A DNA stretch of 64,000 nt from Deltaproteobacteria bacterium (GCA_050258655.1 JBLMZF010000106.1:2669-66668); one strand, 5' to 3'. Shown: positions 22,362 through 64,000, counted from the stretch's first letter. Translations and numbers: made by a program. The notes: generated by a model from the letters alone, not told the origin.

Positions 22362-22437
<76 letters not shown>

Positions 22438-23054: not shown

Positions 23055-23137
23055 GCCGGGGTGTCGGAATGGCAGACGAGTCGGTCTCAAAAACCGATGT
23101 CCGAAAGGGCGTGAGGGTTCAACTCCCTCCCCCGGCA
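23055..23137 (+). tRNA. tRNA-Leu (anticodon CAA), type II with long variable arm
   Basis: GCCGGGGTGTCGGAATGGCAGACGAGTCGGTCTCAAAAACCGATGTCCGAAAGGGCGTGAGGGTTCAACTCCCTCCCCCGGCA. Acceptor 7 bp. 3-bp D stem. Anticodon stem TCGGT/ACCGA with loop CT-CAA-AA. Long variable arm. T-loop GTTCAAC. CCA not encoded. Confidence 0.85.
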
Positions 23138-53508: not shown

Positions 53509-54066
53509 TTAACCCTTCATCAGCGCCAGCGTCTCGGAACGGGTCTTCTCGTTCTCCTTGAACACCCCGCGCACCGCCGAAGTGACCGTTCTGGTCCCCG
53601 GCTTCTTGACGCCGCGCATCGACATGCACATATGTTCCGCCTCGATGACCACCATGCAACCCTGCGGCTTGAGCTTTGCCATGATCATGTCCGCCACCTG
53701 CGTCGTAAGCCGTTCCTGTACCTGGGGGCGGCGGGACAGAAGATCGACGACGCGGGCAAGCTTGCTGAGACCCGTCACCCTTCCCTGTCTGGGGATATAG
53801 GCGACGTGGGCCGTCCCGATGAACGGCAACAGATGATGCTCGCACATGCTGTACAGGGGTATGCCTTTCAGGAGGATGATCTCGTCGTGCTTCTGGTCGA
53901 GGATGACCTCGAGCTCTTTCGAAGGGTCACGGCCGAGCCCGGCGAATATCTCCTCGTACATCTCGGCCACGCGGCGCGGGGTCTCGAGCAGATCGGTCCT
54001 GCGGGGGTCCTCGCCGATCGCCTCGAGCAACATGCGCACGGCTTTTTCTATCTTTTTGCTGTCCAT
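53509..54066 (-). CDS. folE: GTP cyclohydrolase I
   Basis: 185 aa. …[10 protein letters not shown]…[10 protein letters not shown]…[12 protein letters not shown]… is canonical FolE. Confidence 0.95.
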
Positions 54067-55452
54067 CTATTTTCCTATGCAGAAACCGGAGAATATCCTT
54101 TCAAGAAGATCCCCGGTAAAATCCTTCCCCTGGAGCCGGTCAAGAAGCCCGCACGCGTCCTTCAGGTTCTGCGCCAGGCACTCCGGCAGCAATTCATTAT
54201 CCCGATAATTGCGGGTCTCATCAATGATTTTTTTTATTTTTTTGAGGGTCTGAATATGCCTGATGTTGCTGACGGCCGCGTCGGAACCCGAGACGCCCGC
54301 GCAGCCGCAGCGGTCCGCTATCGCCTCTTCCAGGCTGCCGATGCCGGTACCCTTTTTGGCCGAAAGCGCGATCGCCCCGGGGAACCGTCCCCTGACCGTC
54401 TCGGCGGTCCGCGCGACGGTCCTGCGGTCGGACTTGTTCACCACCGCGATGGGCCGGCGCGGGGAAAGCTTGCGCATCAGGAGCGCGTCTCGGCGGTCGA
54501 GCCCCGAACTGCCGTCGAAGACAAGGATGACCAGGTCCGCGCTCTCGATGCTCTGCGCCGTCTTCCTCATCGCCTTCTTCTCGACCAGGTCCCTCGGCTC
54601 GAGTATCCCCGCGGTATCGATGATCCTGACCGGGATGCCGCGGATGTCGATCACCTCTTCGACGGTATCCCTCGTGGTCCCCGCGACGGGAGTCACGATC
54701 GACCGCTCCTGTCGCAGGAGCGCGTTGAGCAGGGATGACTTGCCCGCGTTGGGCTTGCCGCAGATGACGGCGCGGACACCCTCCCGGTATGCCTTCCCGC
54801 GCGCGCTCCCTTCAAGCAGGGCAGCGATCATCCCGGAGGCTTCATCGAGGCCGGAGCGAACACGGGCGGGTTCGGATCGTGCCTCGCCGGGAAAATCTAT
54901 CTCCGCCTCGAGCGGGGCCAGGCAGGCAAGCAGGACCGACCTTATCCTGTCGAGTTCCCGGGATAGACCTCCCTTGAGCTGGCCGAGGCTGACCCTGAGC
55001 GCCGCATCGGTCTTGGCGCGGATGATATCGAGGACCGCTTCGGCCTGCGCCAGGTCGATCCTTCCGTTCAGAAAAGCCCTTTTGGTGAACTCGCCCGGTT
55101 CCGCGAGCCTGCAGCCGTTGGCCAGCACCAGTTCAAGCACCGCCCGCATCGCCACAGGTCCCCCGTGGCAGCTTATCTCCACCACATCCTCTCTGGTGTA
55201 ACTTTTAGGCGCACGCATCACGGTCAGCAGCGCTTCATCGACGGTCTCCTGCCCTGACGGCGACCTGCGCACCACCCACCCGTATCTGGCGGTGAAGCCT
55301 TTGGATGCCGAAGGGGCGCGGCCGGAAGCCGGGACAAAAACAGCATCGGCGACCGCAAGCGCCCGGGGTCCGCTGACGCGGATGATGCCTATCCCCGATT
55401 CGCCCGGAGAAGTGGCCATGGCGGCTATCGTCCCGTTCGTATCATCTACCAT
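54067..55452 (-). CDS. mnmE: tRNA modification GTPase MnmE
   Basis: 461 aa. N-terminal THF-binding domain. G-domain (VVICGKPNAGKSSLLNAL, DTAG). C-terminal CIGK. Confidence 0.9.
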   Translation of the reverse strand: MVDDTNGTIAAMATSPGESGIGIIRVSGPRALAVADAVFVPASGRAPSASKGFTARYGWVVRRSPSGQETVDEALLTVMRAPKSYTREDVVEISCHGGPVAMRAVLELVLANGCRLAEPGEFTKRAFLNGRIDLAQAEAVLDIIRAKTDAALRVSLGQLKGGLSRELDRIRSVLLACLAPLEAEIDFPGEARSEPARVRSGLDEASGMIAALLEGSARGKAYREGVRAVICGKPNAGKSSLLNALLRQERSIVTPVAGTTRDTVEEVIDIRGIPVRIIDTAGILEPRDLVEKKAMRKTAQSIESADLVILVFDGSSGLDRRDALLMRKLSPRRPIAVVNKSDRRTVARTAETVRGRFPGAIALSAKKGTGIGSLEEAIADRCGCAGVSGSDAAVSNIRHIQTLKKIKKIIDETRNYRDNELLPECLAQNLKDACGLLDRLQGKDFTGDLLERIFSGFCIGK

Positions 55453-56740
55453 ATCGATCTTTCAATCTCTGCCGCGCTTCACCGACGAGGAATATCGAGC
55501 CCGTGACACAGCATACCCTCTCTTTCCCTTCATCCTCCGCCATCTCCAGAGCGCTGTCGATATCCTGACTTATCCTCACCCGGACCCCCGGGGCAGCCGC
55601 CCTGATGCGCTCTGCGAGCCTTTTGGGGAGAAACGCGCGGGGATTGTCCGCCGCCGTGACGATGAACCTGTCCGCGACGCGCACGAGCTGCCGGCAGATG
55701 GCGCCCAGATCCTTGTCTTTTGACACACCGAGGATAAAGGTTATCTTCTTCCCGGGGTAACTCTCTGTAAGCGTCCTGCACAACGCCCGGGCGGAATCTC
55801 CGTTATGCGCGCCGTCGAGCACGAACCTGCCTGCCGCCTCGAAACGGCCGGGCCAGCGCGTCCCCGCCAGCCCCTGCGCTACCGCCGTCCGCTCCAGCTT
55901 TACACCAAGGGCAGGGGCCGCGGCCGCGCAAAGCGCGGCGGCGCAGGCCGCGTTGACCGACTGATGCGCTCCCCGCAGGGGTATGGGGATCCCTTCCAGG
56001 TCCTTAAGAGAACGGTCCCTCCCGATAAGACAGAGACGCGACCTGCGGGCATAACAGATTTTCTCGATCACCCTCAGCGCGCCGGCCTTCTGAGGAGCGG
56101 AAACGACGGGAATGCGGGGCTTGATGATGCCTGCCTTTTCCCGCGCGATCGCCGCCAGCGTCCTGCCGAGTTTCTGGGTATGGTCAAGGCTGATGGAAGT
56201 GATACAGCAGGCGGCGGGAACGACGACATTGGTGGCGTCCAACCTCCCCCCCAACCCTGTTTCGAGCACAGCGCAGTCGACCTTCTTTGAACGGAAATAG
56301 ACGAACGCGAGGGCCGTGTAGACTTCGAAAAAAGAAAGCGGACCGTAAGGGGACGACGCGCAGAAACGCTCGATGGATGGTTTTAAGCCGGCCACCAGAC
56401 GCGCCAGCTCTTCCCTGCCGATCATCCCTTCGAAATCAGCAGGGCGCGATCCGGGCTCGAGGATGCGTATCCGTTCGCGGACATCGCACAGGTGCGGGGA
56501 CGTGTACAGGCCTACCCGCAGGCCCGCGCTTCGCAGGATATTAGCGCAGAACAGGCAGACCGAACCTTTCCCTTTTGTGCCGGCCACGTGGACGCTCTTG
56601 AAAGCGTCCTGCGGATCGCCGATCGCGGCGAGGAACGAACCGATCCTCTCCAGCCTGAAGGAACGCTTATAAGGATAGGTTGCCCGTTTCTCGTAATTGA
56701 CGAACGAGTCGAGATAGCGTGCGGTCTCCCTGGGATCCAT
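55442..56740 (-). CDS. folC: bifunctional folylpolyglutamate synthase / dihydrofolate synthase
   Basis: 432 aa. P-loop HVAGTKGKGS. Mur-ligase middle and C domains. Confidence 0.9.
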   Translation of the reverse strand: MDPRETARYLDSFVNYEKRATYPYKRSFRLERIGSFLAAIGDPQDAFKSVHVAGTKGKGSVCLFCANILRSAGLRVGLYTSPHLCDVRERIRILEPGSRPADFEGMIGREELARLVAGLKPSIERFCASSPYGPLSFFEVYTALAFVYFRSKKVDCAVLETGLGGRLDATNVVVPAACCITSISLDHTQKLGRTLAAIAREKAGIIKPRIPVVSAPQKAGALRVIEKICYARRSRLCLIGRDRSLKDLEGIPIPLRGAHQSVNAACAAALCAAAAPALGVKLERTAVAQGLAGTRWPGRFEAAGRFVLDGAHNGDSARALCRTLTESYPGKKITFILGVSKDKDLGAICRQLVRVADRFIVTAADNPRAFLPKRLAERIRAAAPGVRVRISQDIDSALEMAEDEGKERVCCVTGSIFLVGEARQRLKDRYGR

Positions 56741-56751
56741 CGGGAAGGGTA

Positions 56752-58320
56752 TTAATGCCGGAAGTGGCGCATGCCGGTGAAGACCATCGGGATCTTGTAC
56801 TTGTCGGCGACCTTGATGATCTTCTCGTCGGCGATGGAGCCTCCGGGCTGGATGATAGCGGTGACTCCCATCCTGGCCGCCTGCATGACAGCGTCCTCTT
56901 TAGGGAAGAACGCGTCGGAGGCCAGAACGGAACCCTTGGCAAGCCCGTGCGATTTCCTGCCGCTCAGATGGACCGAATCGACGCGGGACATCTGCCCGGC
57001 ACCGATACCGACCGTCTTCGTCCCCTTCGTCAGGATGATCGCGTTGGACTTGACGTGCTTGGCGATCTTCCAGCCGAACAGGAGCGACTGCATCTGCTGT
57101 TTGGTCGGTTTCTTCTTCGTCACCACCTTGAGGGCTTTTTCGTCGAGAAGCTGATTGTCCTCGTCCTGCACGAGCAGACCTCCGGCGACACGCTTGAGGT
57201 CGAGCTGGCAGGATCGGCCGCCGAGCTCCGGGAGCTCGAGCAGGCGGACGTTCTTCTTGGCCTTGAGCATCTCCAGCGCCGCGGGCTCGAAACCGGGGCA
57301 TATCACGCACTCCAGGAAGCCGCTGGCGTTGATCGCCTTGGCAAGGACCGTGTCGACCTTCCGGTTGATCCCGACGATGCCGCCGAAAGCCGAAAGCTGA
57401 TCGCACTTCCAGGCCTCTTTGTATGCCTTGAGGAGGTTTTTATTCTCCGCGGCGCCACAGGGGTTGTTGTGCTTGATGAAAACAACCGCCGGGTCGGTGA
57501 ATTCCTTGATGATGTTGACCGCCGCGTTGAGGTCGAGGATATTGTTAAAGGAAAGCTCCTTGCCCCAGAGCTGCTTTATCGCGGCAAGCCCCTGACCGCC
57601 GGCCTGCGCGTAGAAGGCGGCCTTCTGGTGCGGGTTCTCACCGTAACGCAGGGACTGTATCTTCTTGAACGAAAACGAAAGCTGGTCCGGGAAAGCAGCG
57701 TCTCCGGCGCAAGCGGAAGCGCCGGGATGCACCGCTGTGCCAAGGAAACGGTTGATCGCGGCGTCATACCGCGATGTCCTGCCGTAGACCTCGACGCCGT
57801 AACGGGTGGAAAGCTCGGGACGGAAAGAGCCGTTGTTCTTCCTGAGCTCCGCGATGACTTCCGTGTACTGGGAAGGATCGCTGACCACGAGTACGGAACG
57901 GCTGTTCTTGGCCGCTGAGCGCAGCATCGAAGGCCCGCCGATATCGATGTTCTCGATCGCTTCCGCAAGGCTGACGCCGGGCTTGCTGATCGTCTTCTCG
58001 AACGGGTAGAGGTTGACCACCACCATGTCGATCAGGCCGATCCCGTGCTTCTCCACGGTCTTCATGTGCTCGGGATTTTCGCGCAGGGACAGGAGGCCGC
58101 CATGGACCTTCGGGTGCAGGGTCTTGACCCTGCCGTCGAGCATCTCGGGGAAGCCGGTGTACTCGGACACTTCCGTAACCTTGACACCGTTCTCGGACAG
58201 TATCTTCGCCGTGCCGCCCGTGGAAAGTATCTGGACGCCGAAAGAAGCCAGCGTCTTGCCCAGCTCAACGATGCCCGTCTTGTCGGATACGCTCACCAGC
58301 GCGCGCTTGACCTTGATCAT
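56752..58320 (-). CDS. purH: bifunctional AICAR transformylase / IMP cyclohydrolase
   Basis: 522 aa. MIKVKRALVSVSDKTGIVELGK…TGGTAK… MGS-like N-domain plus AICARFT C-domain. Confidence 0.95.
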   Translation of the reverse strand: MIKVKRALVSVSDKTGIVELGKTLASFGVQILSTGGTAKILSENGVKVTEVSEYTGFPEMLDGRVKTLHPKVHGGLLSLRENPEHMKTVEKHGIGLIDMVVVNLYPFEKTISKPGVSLAEAIENIDIGGPSMLRSAAKNSRSVLVVSDPSQYTEVIAELRKNNGSFRPELSTRYGVEVYGRTSRYDAAINRFLGTAVHPGASACAGDAAFPDQLSFSFKKIQSLRYGENPHQKAAFYAQAGGQGLAAIKQLWGKELSFNNILDLNAAVNIIKEFTDPAVVFIKHNNPCGAAENKNLLKAYKEAWKCDQLSAFGGIVGINRKVDTVLAKAINASGFLECVICPGFEPAALEMLKAKKNVRLLELPELGGRSCQLDLKRVAGGLLVQDEDNQLLDEKALKVVTKKKPTKQQMQSLLFGWKIAKHVKSNAIILTKGTKTVGIGAGQMSRVDSVHLSGRKSHGLAKGSVLASDAFFPKEDAVMQAARMGVTAIIQPGGSIADEKIIKVADKYKIPMVFTGMRHFRH

Positions 58321-58334
58321 GTGCTGTCTCTCCT

Positions 58335-59042
58335 TTATCCCTTATTGGTCCGGATCACCAGATAATCCCCGTCCTGCACGACGTAATCCTTCATCTCCAA
58401 TTTCATATGGTTGGCGGCTTTAGCCTTGGAAAGGCTTCCGTCGGCGATGAGGTCCTTGTAGTGGATAACCTCGGCGCGGATGAAGCCCTGCTGGATGGCG
58501 GTATGGATGGCGCCGGCCGCTTCGTAGGCCGTAGCCCCGCTTTTGACCGACCAGGCGTGCGAATCCTTGTCCCCGGCGGTGAAAAAGCTGATGTAGCCGG
58601 AGCGGTAATATGCGTTGAAGAAAAGCGTCTTTTTGTCCTCGATCTCCTGCGGCGTCGCCAGAAGGACGGGCTTTATCGTCAGCAGGGTCGCCCCTTCGAT
58701 CATCTTCTGCTCCTCGGGCGTCAGGGTCAGCTCCGAGAGGAACTTCTCCTTCTCAAGCTGCTCCTTGAACCTCCCGAGCAGGACCTTTTCCTCCGGGCTC
58801 TGGCTGCGCTCAAGCCTCGTCTCCACGAACTCCATGTCCTTGATGACCAGGTCCAGCTTGGACGATTCAGGACAGGCTATGACATCCGCCTCCACCAGCC
58901 GCTCCTCTTCAGCGAGGACCTCAGCCTGGATATACACCTTCTTGGCCGAATTGAACATCGTCTTGAGTTCGTCGACGCGCTTGTCGACGATATCCTGCTT
59001 CCCGGAAGTGATGCCTTCGATACCGAAAATGCCTATCTTCAC
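58335..59042 (-). CDS. YchF-like protein retaining coiled-coil and C-terminal TGS/DUF933 domains but with a shortened, degenerate G-domain
   Basis: The C-terminus FFTAGDKDSHAWSVKSGATAYEAAGAIHTAIQQGFIRAEVIHYKDLI…KDYVVQDGDYLV aligns with the YchF C-terminal domain. The N-terminus MKIGIFGIEGITSGKQD replaces the canonical GIVGLPNVGKST P-loop. 235 aa versus about 363 for YchF. Confidence 0.7.
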   Translation of the reverse strand: MKIGIFGIEGITSGKQDIVDKRVDELKTMFNSAKKVYIQAEVLAEEERLVEADVIACPESSKLDLVIKDMEFVETRLERSQSPEEKVLLGRFKEQLEKEKFLSELTLTPEEQKMIEGATLLTIKPVLLATPQEIEDKKTLFFNAYYRSGYISFFTAGDKDSHAWSVKSGATAYEAAGAIHTAIQQGFIRAEVIHYKDLIADGSLSKAKAANHMKLEMKDYVVQDGDYLVIRTNKG

Positions 59043-59098
59043 TTTGACTCCTTAGTTAGATTGCTTCGGAAAAAATACGGTAGAGCCTCGCAATGACG

Positions 59099-61039
59099 TT
59101 ACTCTTCCGCTTCGCCCGCGTGCTGCGCCTGGTACTTGGCGATGATCGGCTGCGCGATCTTGGCGGGCACCTGTTCGTAATGCGCGAAATGCATCGTGAA
59201 AGAACCCTTGCCCTGGGTCATCGAACGCAGGTCGCTGGCGTAGGTGAACATCTCGGAGAGCGGCACATGCGCCTTGACCACCTGCAGCTTGCCCTTGGCC
59301 TCCATGCCCATCGGCCTGCCGCGGCGCTGATTGAGGTCGCCGGATACCTGACCAAGGAATTCCTCGGTCACCAGGACGTCCACATCCATGATCGGCTCAA
59401 GCAGGACAGGGCCCGCGAGGGCGACCGCTTTCTTGAGCGCCAGAGAACCCGCGCGCTGAAATGCGGCATCCGAGGAATCGACGTCATGGTAAGAACCGTC
59501 GTAAAGGCTGACCTTGATGTCGACCATCGGGTAGCCCGCGAACACGCCGCGGGTCATCGTGTTGATGATGCCCTTCTCGACCGAGGGGATAAAGTTCCTC
59601 GGGATGGCTCCCCCGACGACATTGTCCTCGAACTCGAAGCCCTTGCCGTGCTCCAGGGGCCAGATCTCGATCCAGCAGTCGCCGTACTGCCCGCGGCCGC
59701 CGGACTGCCTCTTGTACTTGCCCTGGACCTTGATGCCGCCCTTCGAGATCGTCTCCTTATACGGGACCTTCGGGGTGCCCAGTTCGACGTCGACGTTGAA
59801 GCGCTTCTTGAGCCTGCCGATCATCACGTGCAGGTGCAGGTCGCCCAGGCCGGAGATGACCATCTCCTTGGTCTCGGGGTCGACCTTCTCGCGGAACGTC
59901 GGGTCCTCGGCGACAAGCTTCTGCAGCGCCTGGGTGATCTTCTCCTCGTCCTGCCGCGTCTTCGGCTTGACCGAAGCGGACATCATCGACTCGGGGAAGG
60001 CGATGGGCTTGAAGAGAGCCTTCGAGCCGGCCGCGCCGATCGTGTCGTTGGTCTTGGTCTCCTTGAGCTTCGGGATCGCGATGATATCGCCGCAGGAAGC
60101 GCCTTCCTGGACGCGCTGTTCCTTCCCCTGGAGGAGCATGATCTGGCCGAACCGCTCGTTCGTCTGCTGAGACACATTAAAGAACGACGTGTTCGTGGCA
60201 AGCCTGCCCGAAAGGACCTTGACCAGGCTCAACTGGCCCACATAGGGATCGAATATGCTTTTGAAGACGAAGCCGGTGAACGGCGAGGCGTCGGAAGCCG
60301 TCACTTCCCCCTGCCCCATCTGCATGTGGCAGAATTCGAGCGGAGAAGCGAGGTCATCCTTTACCGCCTTGAGCAGCTCGTCGATGCCTTTGTCCGCCGT
60401 CGCCGAACCGAACAGGATCGGGAACACCTTGCCCGCGTCGACCGCTTTCGGAAGGGCTTCCCTTATCTCTTCGGAAGTGAGCGTGCCTTCGGTAAGATAC
60501 TTCTCGGTGAGCTTGTCGTCGCTTTCGGCCACCGCCTCAGCCAGTTCGTCAAGGGAGCCGCTGGCGAGCACGACAGCGTTCTTGGAAAGGTTCTTCTTTA
60601 TGTCGGAGAGGACCTTTTCCCGGTCGAAGTCTTCCTTATCGATCTTGTTGACGAAGATGATCCGGGGCATCTTCGCCTCCTCGAGCAGTTCCCAGGCCTT
60701 TTCTGTCCCGATCTCGACACCCTGCCCCCCGTCGACGACGACGATCGCGTTGTCGGCGGCGCGGATCGAGGAAAGCACCTCGCCGTAGAAATCGGCGAAA
60801 CCGGGAGTGTCGACGATCTGGATGCGCGTGTGGTCATACTCGCAGAACATGAAGCTCGCGTTGATGGAAGACTTGCGCTCGACCTCGTCGAAATTGTAAT
60901 CGCTGACCGTATTCCCCTCTGCGGTGGTCCCCTTACGGGTGGTCGCACCGCATTTAAAAAGCATCGCTTCGCAAAGGCTTGTCTTGCCGACCTGGGCATG
61001 ACCGAGCAGGATAACGCTTCTTTTGTCCTTTACTTCCAT
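59099..61039 (-). CDS. elongation factor G-like GTPase (EF-G paralog)
   Basis: All five EF-G domains present. G1 GHAQVGKTS, G3 VDTPGFADF, G4 VNKIDKED. Domain IV loop region …HDVDSS…. Start at MEVKDKRSVILLG (61039). The ORF-track N-terminal extension was rejected. Confidence 0.85.
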   Translation of the reverse strand: MEVKDKRSVILLGHAQVGKTSLCEAMLFKCGATTRKGTTAEGNTVSDYNFDEVERKSSINASFMFCEYDHTRIQIVDTPGFADFYGEVLSSIRAADNAIVVVDGGQGVEIGTEKAWELLEEAKMPRIIFVNKIDKEDFDREKVLSDIKKNLSKNAVVLASGSLDELAEAVAESDDKLTEKYLTEGTLTSEEIREALPKAVDAGKVFPILFGSATADKGIDELLKAVKDDLASPLEFCHMQMGQGEVTASDASPFTGFVFKSIFDPYVGQLSLVKVLSGRLATNTSFFNVSQQTNERFGQIMLLQGKEQRVQEGASCGDIIAIPKLKETKTNDTIGAAGSKALFKPIAFPESMMSASVKPKTRQDEEKITQALQKLVAEDPTFREKVDPETKEMVISGLGDLHLHVMIGRLKKRFNVDVELGTPKVPYKETISKGGIKVQGKYKRQSGGRGQYGDCWIEIWPLEHGKGFEFEDNVVGGAIPRNFIPSVEKGIINTMTRGVFAGYPMVDIKVSLYDGSYHDVDSSDAAFQRAGSLALKKAVALAGPVLLEPIMDVDVLVTEEFLGQVSGDLNQRRGRPMGMEAKGKLQVVKAHVPLSEMFTYASDLRSMTQGKGSFTMHFAHYEQVPAKIAQPIIAKYQAQHAGEAEE

Positions 61040-61236
61040 CACGATCTCCTTTTGGTTTCCGTGGCGGTTTCCAAAGAAAAGATTGACGTCAGGCGAGGAA
61101 AGCTTTTTGTGGGATTGGTTCCAAAGGCAATTATAAAGAACGGAGCAAAGAAGCAATTTTAATTATACGACGGAAGGATATGTGCGGCAAGTGTTTTTCT
61201 GCCTGCTAAAACGACGGGAAGGGTCCCTGGAAGGGA

Positions 61237-64000
61237 TTACTGCAGGGCGGCGGTCTCGAGGCCCAGAACGACCTTCAGGGTCTCGATAATGTCTTTGGAA
61301 GAACGGGTGCCGTTCTCCTCTTCCAGCCTGAGGATATAGGCGATGCGGGTCCTGGCCCGGGCTATTGCGGCAGGGGCAGCGGGTACATGCTCACGGCAGT
61401 CGCCCAGGTAGCCCTTGACACTATCTTCGCTGGGCATCATCCCCGCGACAAGCATATTGTCGAACCGGAAGTCGACGCCGCCGGCGGCGTCCTCCCCTCC
61501 GTCCTTCGCGAGCTTCGGGCTCAATCTCGTGTAGTCCTGATGCACAACCGCGTAACCGCCTGCGGCTTCCATCTTCGCCAGGAACTTCTCCCACGGCATC
61601 TTGTAAAGCGCGACCAGGAGCCCGAAGCCGGGTCTCTGAGGGTCGATGGCCTGCTCGCCCGGGTCTTTACCGGTCGTCCGCTCGATATGCTTCCGGTACG
61701 CCTGCTGTCTAAACAGCATTGCCTTGGGGGTCGCCCGGGACTTGCCCGAATCACGCATCATCTCGACTAACTCCCGGCTGTCGGTCTTATTCACTACCTC
61801 CTTGAACTGCTCTTCTGGAATCGAATCTATGACCAGCGACCAGTCAGTCGGTTCATATATATGACCGTAGTCCAGAATGATCACTTTCTTCAGCATTCCC
61901 AGTTCCGGTTTATTCTGATAAGCCTGAGTGACATGGGCAAGTAACAGAGGATTATTATAGACTGCGTACTTGATGCTGCGGGCGAGCTGATATTCCGCAT
62001 CTGAGCCTATAGCGCTTATCCACGAGACGATAAGATCATCCAATTCAGAAAAGCCGATCCTAATGCTATTAGAGGATTCAAGCGAATCGGCTAAAGCTTC
62101 GGCAAGATCATCCTTAACAGGAATCTTGTTTGTCTCTTTTATGCCTGAAATAACCTGCCCGTACAGAGCAGGATTACCACTGATGGCATACTTCAGAATA
62201 TTGGTCGTTGTCAAACCATTAAAGGCATGGACAAGTATATCCATTTCTTCAGGAGTGACCTTAATGTGCAGGTATCCGTTGCTTGCATAACGAAGGAGAA
62301 CTTCGATAGCCTCTGTAAGCGCAGTTATAACAGCTTCGTTCCTGGTTTCTTTTAAAGCCGTGACCATCAATTTATACACTTCCTCGTTATTCTTGACGGC
62401 ATCGATCGCATTGATAAAGACCCACTGTAGATTTCCCCAGGCAAACTCGCCTTTCGCAGCGTCAAGCGCGGCAATAAGAGTATGCAGATCGTCGGAAGAC
62501 AACCTTAGATCATACTTTTTCCCGCGGGCGGCCTTGAAAGCGTCGATTAAGACTTCGGCCAGCACGTCACGGACACTGTCCTCTGTCGTTACTTTCAAAG
62601 CGGCGATGACCTGGCCGTACAATTCCGGGCTGTTAAGCAGCATGTTATTAATATCCTCTTTTAACTGCCGCGGAATCCCGTACCGAGATACCCGTCTGAG
62701 CGCTTCTAATTTTTCTTTTAATGACTGTTCTTCCCCACCGTCCTTAGCGGCCCACGCGCTCAATCTTGTAGGCTCCTTGTGCACGACTTCATATCCTCCC
62801 GAGGCCTCCATCTTCGCCAGAAACTTCTCCCAGGGCATTTTGTAGAGCGCGACAAGGAGGGAAAATCCTTCTTTCTTTGGATCGATGGGCTGTTCTCCGG
62901 GATCCTCGCCGCCAGCCCGCTTGATCGACTCCCTGTACGCGATCTGTTTCATGGCCATGGCCTTGCTTGTCACCTGGCCATTGTCTACGGCAAAGAACAT
63001 ATCCCTGTAACCATCTTCATCTCCCTTAATAAGGGCATGAAGAGCATCCGAGGGGATCGACGACAGGACGAGCGACCAGTCTGTCCGGCTGTTAATGCCA
63101 AGATATTCGTGCGGATAGAGGCCGTTTTGTCTGCATCTTTCAAATGCCGAGCCGAACAAAGGCTGCAAGCGGGGCCATTCACGTTTGCCCAAAGAGCTCC
63201 TTACAGCGGATACCAGGGTGAGATCATTCCACAAGGCTTCCTGGATACTCTCTTCGAAACGATCGATAGCCCATTTAGAATCCGTTACTCCTTGCGGTAT
63301 AGTAAAGAGCGCGTCAATGAGGGCGCCGAATTCCTCCTGGGCCAAAACGATCGGCCGCCCGTCTTCTCTGGAAAACTTCAGGGAAGTGACTAATGTCCTC
63401 GCGAACATCCCCCGCCAGGTAACGGTCCCGGCACCCTTGATCTCGGCAAAGAAACGTCCCATCATCTGCGGATTCTTCCTGAGCGCTCCCTCGACGCACA
63501 TTTCATAATCCCAGAGCTCTTCGTCATGCCTTTCGTAGGCGCTCCTCATAAGCGCGATATAGAAATCGAACTCTTCCGGCGTCCCCCTGAGGATCCGCGT
63601 GGCGCGGGACGTCCTCAACGCATAACCGAGAGCATACACAAGCGCGCGCGATTCTTCTTCTCCGGCGACCCGCAAGGCCGCGACGACCTGTTTATACAAG
63701 GCCGGGTTTACATGGAGAGTGTAGGTGATTTCCTGTTTAAGATGGTACTTTTCTTCTTTTGAAGAAGCCAGCTTGAGCGCCTCGATCTTCCCTGCGAGAT
63801 AAGACGTATTGTAGATATCCTTCTTCGACCTTCTCCCGCCGTCCTTCGCGATCTTCGGGCTCAGCCTTGTGTAATCAGCGTGTACCGCCGCGTATCCGCC
63901 ACAGGCTTCTATCTTCGCCAGGAACTTCTCCCACGGCATCTTGTAGAGCGCGACCAGGAGCGAGAAACCGGGTTTCTGCGGGTCGATAGGCTGCTCGCCG
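61237..64000 (-). CDS. giant modular repeat protein of unknown function (C-terminal >900 aa in window; ORF continues beyond window end)
   Basis: No stop reading 5' of 63939 to the window edge. Contains at least 3 to 4 tandem modules of about 400 aa, with near-identical junctions GFxLLVALYKMPWEKFLAKMEAxGGYxVVHxDYTRLSPKxAKDGGE and divergent cores. No signal peptide or TM seen in the part present. Unique C-terminal tail of about 90 aa. Confidence 0.7.
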   Translation of the reverse strand, partial: GEQPIDPQKPGFSLLVALYKMPWEKFLAKIEACGGYAAVHADYTRLSPKIAKDGGRRSKKDIYNTSYLAGKIEALKLASSKEEKYHLKQEITYTLHVNPALYKQVVAALRVAGEEESRALVYALGYALRTSRATRILRGTPEEFDFYIALMRSAYERHDEELWDYEMCVEGALRKNPQMMGRFFAEIKGAGTVTWRGMFARTLVTSLKFSREDGRPIVLAQEEFGALIDALFTIPQGVTDSKWAIDRFEESIQEALWNDLTLVSAVRSSLGKREWPRLQPLFGSAFERCRQNGLYPHEYLGINSRTDWSLVLSSIPSDALHALIKGDEDGYRDMFFAVDNGQVTSKAMAMKQIAYRESIKRAGGEDPGEQPIDPKKEGFSLLVALYKMPWEKFLAKMEASGGYEVVHKEPTRLSAWAAKDGGEEQSLKEKLEALRRVSRYGIPRQLKEDINNMLLNSPELYGQVIAALKVTTEDSVRDVLAEVLIDAFKAARGKKYDLRLSSDDLHTLIAALDAAKGEFAWGNLQWVFINAIDAVKNNEEVYKLMVTALKETRNEAVITALTEAIEVLLRYASNGYLHIKVTPEEMDILVHAFNGLTTTNILKYAISGNPALYGQVISGIKETNKIPVKDDLAEALADSLESSNSIRIGFSELDDLIVSWISAIGSDAEYQLARSIKYAVYNNPLLLAHVTQAYQNKPELGMLKKVIILDYGHIYEPTDWSLVIDSIPEEQFKEVVNKTDSRELVEMMRDSGKSRATPKAMLFRQQAYRKHIERTTGKDPGEQAIDPQRPGFGLLVALYKMPWEKFLAKMEAAGGYAVVHQDYTRLSPKLAKDGGEDAAGGVDFRFDNMLVAGMMPSEDSVKGYLGDCREHVPAAPAAIARARTRIAYILRLEEENGTRSSKDIIETLKVVLGLETAALQ
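61500..61700. repeat. conserved module-junction repeat copy (intragenic, about 1.2 kb period)
   Basis: cgccaggaacttctcccacggcatcttgtaaagcgcgaccaggagcccgaagccgggtctctgagggtcgatggcctgctcgcccgg at 61573 onward matches the copies near 62813 and 63916 at about 80-90 percent nucleotide identity. Confidence 0.8.
62740..62960. repeat. conserved module-junction repeat copy (intragenic)
   Basis: cgccagaaacttctcccagggcattttgtagagcgcgacaaggag… is homologous to the 61573 and 63916 copies. Confidence 0.8.
63830..64000. repeat. conserved module-junction repeat copy (intragenic, truncated by window end)
   Basis: cgccaggaacttctcccacggcatcttgtagagcgcgaccaggagcgagaaaccgggtttctgcgggtcgataggctgctcgcc is nearly identical to the copy at 61573. 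Confidence 0.8.

Follow-up and report, generated by a model that had tools for sequence, protein, structure and literature searches.

A short YchF without nucleotide-binding motifs, encoded next to an EF-G2-type elongation factor G paralog, in Candidatus Omnitrophota

YchF/OLA1 is one of the few nucleoside triphosphatases (NTPases) conserved across all life, and its molecular role is still debated, with ribosome splitting, translation of leaderless mRNAs, and regulation of stress responses among the proposals. Known structures of the family (1JAL, 2DBY, 2OHF, 5EE0, and 8KIE) share the same domain order, with a sheet core first, then an inserted helical hairpin, and a TGS domain at the C-terminus. 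According to the structure of E. coli YchF on the 50S ribosomal subunit, binding occurs mainly via the helical domain: Lys149, Lys152, Lys156, and Lys159 at the hairpin tip contact H62 of 23S rRNA, helix 5 and the loop following it contact bL19 and uL14, and Leu181 touches Phe100 of uL14. Deletion of the helical domain impairs YchF function. As for elongation factor G (EF-G), paralogs of the EFG II/EF-G2 type have in common five domains, the motif GH..GKT.L, a Ser in switch I, Gly333, Lys352, and a deletion in the G' subdomain. Here we describe a 64,000-nt stretch of DNA (GCA_050258655.1, JBLMZF010000106.1:2669-66668; hereafter the window) in which derivatives of both families are encoded side by side on the minus strand, namely an EF-G-like protein of 646 aa (59099-61039) and, directly downstream, a YchF derivative of 235 aa without nucleotide-binding motifs (58335-59042), referred to as short YchF (sYchF). 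A preliminary description of this DNA had placed two adjacent co-directional genes between a repeat protein and purH, which is confirmed by the open reading frames (ORFs) and by identical NCBI gene calls (MGE5308782.1, 'elongation factor G', and MGE5308781.1, 'DUF933 domain-containing protein'). In our view the two are fairly probably conserved Omnitrophota derivatives of translation NTPases, the EF-G2-type protein acting as a slow factor and sYchF independently of nucleotide.

According to Pfam, the C-terminal domain of sYchF is complete, with PF06071 covering residues 151-233 over the full profile (E 7.7e-29). On the YchF model TIGR00092, sYchF scores 108 bits against a cutoff of 279, which explains its 'DUF933' label. 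Aligned by hhalign to 19 full-length YchFs, the short family places residues 16-234 onto 44-366 with a probability of 100%. Residues 1-58 (58869-59042) are a remnant of the G-domain sheet, comprising strand 1, the D.R hairpin, and strands 3 and 4 (hhalign and MAFFT). Residues 59-124 (58671-58868) form the helical hairpin, or YchF A-domain, with a tip ~10 aa shorter (model and alignments), and helices 59-79 and 83-97 of the model correspond to the inserted helical domain. The best conserved part is the TGS/YchF C-terminal domain (residues 150-235, 58338-58595), in which 32 of 85 columns are invariant in the family and identity to E. coli YchF is ~45%. Retained YchF motifs are the D.R(L) hairpin, the E.RL helix, and the LT.KP strand. 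The preliminary description had the helical and TGS/DUF933 domains as kept, and PF06071 and the model helices agree.

Strand 1 (KIGIFG) is also kept, and the segment equivalent to residues ~10-39 of E. coli YchF, which contains the P-loop GLPNVGKST along with helix 1 and switch I, is reduced to four residues. G14-K15 of sYchF correspond to G42-V43 of E. coli YchF, where the conserved hairpin V.VPD.RL..L begins; in sYchF this hairpin reads DIVDKRVDEL (D20 and R22 are invariant). Also deleted are G3/switch II, the His114 loop, the segment from G4 (NxxE) to G5 (~52 aa), and the helical tip (~10 aa, opposite KKAKGGDKDAK in E. coli). The total loss is ~128 aa (363 to 235); the earlier figure of ~90 aa of lost G domain was thus right about the shortening but not about its amount, and the helical tip is gone as well. 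The N-terminus, GIFGIEGITSGKQD, had been taken for a mis-spaced Walker A. Both MAFFT and hhalign, however, put its GK on G42-V43, with the P-loop wholly deleted, and in divergent family members this GK reads GTF, GIQ, EKK, or NK, so that GxxxGKQ is ruled out as a degenerate Walker A. The expectation that NTPs are not bound or hydrolysed normally is borne out, since all canonical nucleotide-binding elements are deleted, which leaves sYchF unable to bind or hydrolyse nucleotides in the canonical manner or to serve as an ATPase switch. sYchF is a YchF/OLA1 descendant with five internal deletions (P-loop, switch I, G3/switch II, the His114 loop, and G4-G5), whose five-stranded remnant still keeps hairpin and TGS domain arranged as in YchF. 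In the predicted structure (pLDDT 93), 227 of 235 residues superpose on YchF.

A gene whose product lacks every family-defining motif and scores far under the YchF model cutoff could be a pseudogene in decay, or its short form could result from a misassigned start codon or a frameshift. The start codon of sYchF, however, is a GTG at 59042 with the ribosome-binding site AAGGAG 6 nt upstream (59048-59053), and this site overlaps an in-frame TAA (59052-59054) located 12 nt upstream of the start; both were read from the sequence and together span 59048-59054 on the minus strand. Because of this stop, and because the end of the EF-G-like gene is only ~56 nt away, there is no room for the missing G domain, and a longer N-terminus is excluded, including one from an upstream start that would restore the P-loop. 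According to a word-indexed search, sYchF has >120 homologs with 59-83% identity and lengths of 228-252 aa, nearly all of them 232-236 aa, and the length stays constant over hundreds of sequences. Mean column identity in the family alignment is 75%, with 71% for the N-terminal 58 residues and 84% for the TGS domain; conservation peaks in the TGS domain, and the N-terminal remnant is on a par with the helical part. Pairwise ratios of nonsynonymous to synonymous substitution rates (dN/dS) are 0.04-0.10 for the whole gene and 0.02-0.17 for the remnant (residues 1-58). Conserved length and low dN/dS, remnant included, therefore indicate a functional protein and not a decaying gene. Together with the start region and the confident, compact model, they refute the pseudogene or artefact reading, to which we give practically no chance.

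Homologs are named 'DUF933 domain-containing protein' (Candidatus Omnitrophota) or 'ribosome-binding ATPase YchF' (Joint Genome Institute, JGI). An exhaustive profile search of 1.84 billion representatives gave ~30 clusters (50% identity) of 225-235 aa, interleaved in the match list with ordinary YchFs of 340-370 aa, and all informative names among these short clusters are Candidatus Omnitrophota. A divergent sYchF, 31% identical, is encoded in the closed 1.28-Mb Omnitrophota genome CP070684.1. In addition, GTDB was scanned, with one genome per species, using the family-specific N-terminal part of sYchF (12 sequences). Among the resulting 26 loci, 19 are titled Omnitrophota, 1 Candidatus Undivivens, and 1 carries no phylum name, the remaining 5 being labelled Planctomycetales or Verrucomicrobia. 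It is thus very probable that sYchF is a YchF derivative without nucleotide-binding elements that is conserved in Omnitrophota. No description of DUF933-only proteins or of a P-loop-less YchF was found in the literature, and the short YchF is apparently an undescribed variant of a universal protein family. Several full-length YchFs of 339-364 aa from Muiribacteriota and Bacillota (P0155, and P0159 with its cluster) are likewise named 'DUF933 domain-containing protein' by NCBI, and P0150 (L037:10001-11059) has an unusual P-loop, GYPQVGKTT; YchFs with a divergent G domain may be commoner than their annotation suggests.

A stronger version of our explanation, which does not contradict it, is that the universal ychF was cut down in situ at the root of Omnitrophota, so that sYchF is the sole homolog and no YchF ATPase is left; we see the case as evenly poised. 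The short form spans the phylum, down to the 31% identical protein of CP070684.1, and the resemblance of its TGS domain to that of E. coli YchF is about what an ortholog would show. A tblastn search of the window with the EF-G-like protein, sYchF, and E. coli YchF found no paralogs, and no YchF G domain was found in ~0.54 Mb of related loci, nearly all of it Omnitrophota DNA, beyond two full-length YchF loci included deliberately; the same loci hold no canonical fusA, tuf, rpsG, or rpsL. The closest full-length YchFs were considered as possible Omnitrophota proteins and rejected: those with names come from Wallbacteria, Muiribacteriota, Bacillota, and Coprothermobacter, and the neighbourhoods of the two included loci (L037 and L038) are unrelated. 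The loci, however, cover only ~20 kb per genome, and a pseudo-enzyme has, as a rule, begun as a duplicate in a genome that still keeps an active copy. A survey of 30,000 genomes points in both directions. It remarks on unusually few ribosome biogenesis factors in Omnitrophota, and it reports ychF (K06942, a BAC120 marker) in 99.4% of genomes outside the Candidate Phyla Radiation (CPR) and 97% of CPR genomes; in its supplements, Omnitrophota are not listed in the per-phylum presence of ychF. The presence of a canonical ychF in these genomes is about as probable as its absence.

As for the EF-G-like protein, all five EF-G Pfam domains are matched (GTP_EFTU, EF-G_D2, EFG_III, EFG_IV, and EFG_C), as the preliminary description had stated. 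On the canonical EF-G equivalog TIGR00484 it scores 609 bits, under the cutoff of 659.4. The NCBI subfamily model that covers it best is NF009381 (PRK12740 group), with 790 bits over a cutoff of 583, while it falls short of the two named EF-G2 models, NF009377 (538 vs 890) and NF058620 (489 vs 1000). The G1, G3, and G4 motifs had been called intact, which does not hold for G3, and G2 is altered too. G1 reads GHAQVGKT followed by SL (60980-61003), with the EFG II-type Gly16 and Leu25. G3 reads DTPGFADF (60788-60811) where S. aureus and E. coli EF-G read DTPGHVDF, so that, by alignment to EF-G, Phe81 (60797-60799) takes the position of the catalytic His; G2/switch I reads ERKSSI in place of the canonical ERGITI. 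In 20 of 20 orthologs from related loci the catalytic position is Phe or Tyr and never His, and the G1, G2, and G4 patterns are constant.

Five of the six published signature positions that separate EFG II from EFG I (Margus et al. 2011, Table 1) agree with a placement in EFG II. The G domain has Gly16 (Ala in EFG I), Leu25 (Thr), and Ser61 (Thr) and lacks RGITI, as is also the case in 20 of 20 orthologs; in domain II, the protein has Gly333 (Ala in EFG I) and Lys352 (Lys/Arg vs Gly in EFG I). The domain II residues were read by hand, with position 291 outside the check, from an alignment to S. aureus EF-G in which QGKEQ stands opposite HANSR and PKLK opposite VGLK, 19 residues apart. The G' subdomain (indel region III) lacks ~45-46 aa relative to E. 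coli EF-G, S. aureus EF-G, and the 692-position NCBIfam profile. Scores are 536 bits to S. aureus EF-G and 409 to T. thermophilus EF-G2 (1WDT). Domains II-V, the part that contacts the ribosome at the A site, account for 455 bits to S. aureus EF-G, domain IV loops included; the G domain is far more divergent (80 bits) and, taken alone, has its best matches in the EF-G2 proteins of T. thermophilus and B. thetaiotaomicron (7UVP), by a margin of a few bits. From its sequence, the 646-aa protein is thus in all likelihood an EF-G2-type paralog without the catalytic His, that is, a further member of an already known type.

The alternative that this gene is the sole EF-G of the organism, a fusA displaced from the str operon, is very unlikely. 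It would agree with the strongly canonical-like domains II-V, with the NCBI name, and with the tblastn search, by which no second EF-G was found in the window; none was found in the ~0.54 Mb of related loci either. The window, however, represents only ~64 kb of a genome, the TIGR00484 score is under its cutoff, and the EFG II signature comes with the G' deletion and with the loss of the catalytic His in 20/20 orthologs. Moreover, in a survey of 590 genomes (Margus et al. 2011), no EFG II occurred without a further EF-G in the genome. Relative to canonical EF-G, the protein has no catalytic His, no RGITI, a shortened G' subdomain, and no rpsL, rpsG, or tuf neighbours: rpsL and rpsG are found neither in the window nor in the related loci, so the str-operon context is absent, and no tuf match reaches EF-Tu level, the best tufA matches being 25-30% identical and located mostly on the EF-G2 G domain itself. 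The preliminary view of a paralog that is not obviously fusA is therefore supported, and we strongly expect a canonical fusA in these genomes.

Regarding activity, G1 and G4 should allow GTP binding in principle, as in canonical EF-G. In M. smegmatis EF-G2, the equivalent of His88 is Tyr98, and the protein has no ribosome-dependent GTPase activity. By analogy with characterized EF-G2 proteins, the paralog described here most likely binds GTP and the ribosome and hydrolyses GTP poorly or not at all. Beside a canonical EF-G, it would act as a slow, low-cost translocase or as a ribosome-holding factor. A Bacteroides EF-G paralog is cited as translocating without GTP hydrolysis (Han et al. 2023, as cited elsewhere), and the earlier idea of a role in stress or dormancy translation fits the published work on EF-G2 in Bacteroides and mycobacteria.

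Downstream of sYchF, after a gap of 14 nt, the minus strand carries purH (56752-58320), folC (55442-56740), mnmE (54067-55452), and folE (53509-54066), each identified by ORF and Pfam. Gaps within this co-directional row (53509-58320) do not exceed 14 nt, and no terminator-like site was seen between the EF-G2 and sYchF genes. A consensus scan finds a sigma-70-like match, TTGCCG-17-TATAAT (61162-61190, minus strand, 10 of 12 positions), which is a pattern match only and sits between the repeat-protein gene and the EF-G2 start. EF-G2, sYchF, purH, folC, mnmE, and folE thus probably form one transcription unit with the first two at its head. Neither a riboswitch (such as ZTP) nor any other RNA element upstream of the operon is matched by Rfam, whose only matches in the window are two tRNA genes (22365-22437, minus strand, and 23055-23137, plus strand). 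The repeat protein upstream (61237-63939, minus strand, 900 aa) has no Pfam match; its gene contains a 105-nt unit three times (starts at 61495, 62734, and 63835; peptide MPWEKFLAK.EA.GGY..VH) and a 249-nt unit twice, and its exact sequence was not found in a collection of 15 billion proteins.

In the related loci, EF-G2 lies directly upstream of sYchF in 18 of the 24 with enough upstream sequence, usually followed by purH-folC-mnmE-folE. The pairing of EF-G and YchF proposed earlier is therefore frequent but not universal. Three loci of one clade (L017, L020, and L021) have the same genes from purH onward and, in place of EF-G2, a gene for an ABC-F ATPase of 627-629 aa (L017:2775-4664, L020:4805-6688, and L021:978-2867) with two ABC_tran domains, an ABC_tran_Xtn linker, and ABC_tran_CTD. 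ABC-F proteins are a family of ribosome-associated factors. In L030, sYchF is preceded by a KamA-like radical-SAM gene and followed by dnaA, and in CP070684.1 gltX is the upstream gene. Thus, the EF-G2/sYchF pair is a conserved but not obligatory feature of a large Omnitrophota clade. Nearly all Omnitrophota loci also carry, directly upstream of EF-G2, a gene for a KamA/EpmB-like radical-SAM lysine-2,3-aminomutase (394 aa, 70-81% identity), preceded by one or two ATP-grasp (D-Ala-D-Ala-ligase-like) genes (L002:4676-7847, L004:4675-7860, and most of L011-L035); in L030 (2378-4622) it stands directly upstream of sYchF. It is absent from the window, where the repeat protein takes its place; a link to beta-lysine chemistry or to modification of the EF-P type would be only a guess. 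In L013 (10702-12883, JBAZJY010000002.1), ~2.2 kb are inserted between sYchF and purH and ~2 kb between folC and mnmE, and the block is otherwise intact.

This gene order may also reflect nothing but inheritance, with EF-G2 and sYchF being neighbours in a housekeeping block (KamA-like-EF-G2-sYchF-purH-folC-mnmE-folE) without any partnership, and we take this to be a serious possibility, if a little short of an even one. Genes for folate, purine, and tRNA modification share the block, the link of sYchF to purH-folC-mnmE-folE is about as frequent as that to EF-G2, and the KamA-like gene shows a similarly tight linkage to EF-G2. In loci without EF-G2 (L017, L020, and L021), purH stays downstream of sYchF, and in L010, L030, L034, and L036 sYchF occurs in unrelated contexts. 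The adjacency, however, persists down to ~44% sYchF identity (L032 and L033), the genes are co-directional with short gaps, and where EF-G2 is missing, a ribosome-associated ATPase of the ABC-F family stands upstream instead. The specialised joint function offered in the preliminary description is overstated, as it was drawn from gene order only. An attractive idea, which gene order alone suggests, is that both proteins, expressed along with the purine and folate genes, would help very small, energy-limited cells to spare NTPs.

For sYchF itself, we tentatively suggest, at somewhat less than even confidence, a constitutive, nucleotide-independent factor that would bind the ribosome or RNA via its TGS domain and hairpin and be controlled by expression level instead of an ATP switch. 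Leu105 of sYchF aligns with Leu181 of E. coli YchF, the residue in contact with uL14. Ribosome binding in the same mode as E. coli YchF is, judged by such alignments, possible but not assured.

Several observations weigh against a slow EF-G2 paired with a nucleotide-independent sYchF. T. thermophilus EF-G2, with what we take to be a Tyr at the His position (consistent with DAPGY in the alignment), reportedly keeps ribosome-dependent GTPase activity, so that loss of the His is no proof of lost activity. The strongly canonical-like domains II-V, unusual for EFG II, leave room for a role as main translocase. As for sYchF, the lysine tip that contacts H62 is deleted, and the known mode of ribosome binding may therefore be lost. 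Several lineages have sYchF without an adjacent EF-G2, and given the folate and purine genes around the pair, its adjacency may be no more than an inherited gene order. Two derivatives of translation NTPases, slow and nucleotide-independent, respectively, nevertheless remain the reading we favour. Its most far-reaching form is unlikely, though not negligibly so: Omnitrophota would lack any YchF ATPase, ychF having been converted in place to a nucleotide-free scaffold of TGS domain and hairpin that is co-transcribed in most lineages with a hydrolysis-deficient EF-G2 and purine/folate genes as an NTP-sparing translation module.

The source metagenome-assembled genome (MAG), in which both genes lie on a contig of 67.5 kb, is labelled 'Deltaproteobacteria bacterium' by NCBI, and some relatives are likewise labelled Planctomycetales or Verrucomicrobia. 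Since Candidatus Omnitrophota MAGs are the main source of close homologs of the two genes and of loci with this gene order, the Deltaproteobacteria label is probably wrong. With a score far under the TIGR00092 cutoff, these genomes are expected to lack the TIGR00092 (ychF) marker, which could affect marker-based estimates of completeness and phylogeny for Omnitrophota.

As a natural, phylum-wide variant under strong purifying selection, sYchF amounts to a ready-made separation-of-function mutant of YchF/OLA1. It shows which part of YchF evolution treats as indispensable, and it offers a simple protein for asking what the TGS domain and the hairpin bind. If Omnitrophota have no YchF ATPase, the conserved core role of YchF/OLA1 needs no ATP hydrolysis. 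The EF-G2 described here, in turn, brings one more lineage into the expanding group of EF-G paralogs that lack the catalytic histidine.

In comparison with known systems, the aromatic residue at the catalytic His position is shared with the EF-G2 proteins of M. smegmatis and T. thermophilus (DAPGY in the latter). Solved structures for comparison come from T. thermophilus (1WDT), M. smegmatis (9K0Z and 9K10), and B. thetaiotaomicron (7UVP and 8DMF). Unlike these proteins, the paralog from the window has domains II-V much nearer to canonical EF-G, keeping the domain IV tip loops QSGGRGQYG and SYHDVDSS as well as domains III and V. For sYchF, a likeness may be drawn to RsfS, which concerns the proposed way of working only, as the folds are unrelated and there is no homology. 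E. coli YchF docks on uL14 and bL19, on the interface side of the 50S subunit. RsfS binds uL14 in that 50S neighbourhood and hinders subunit joining without a nucleotide. A nucleotide-free remnant of YchF could, by analogy, act passively in the same manner.

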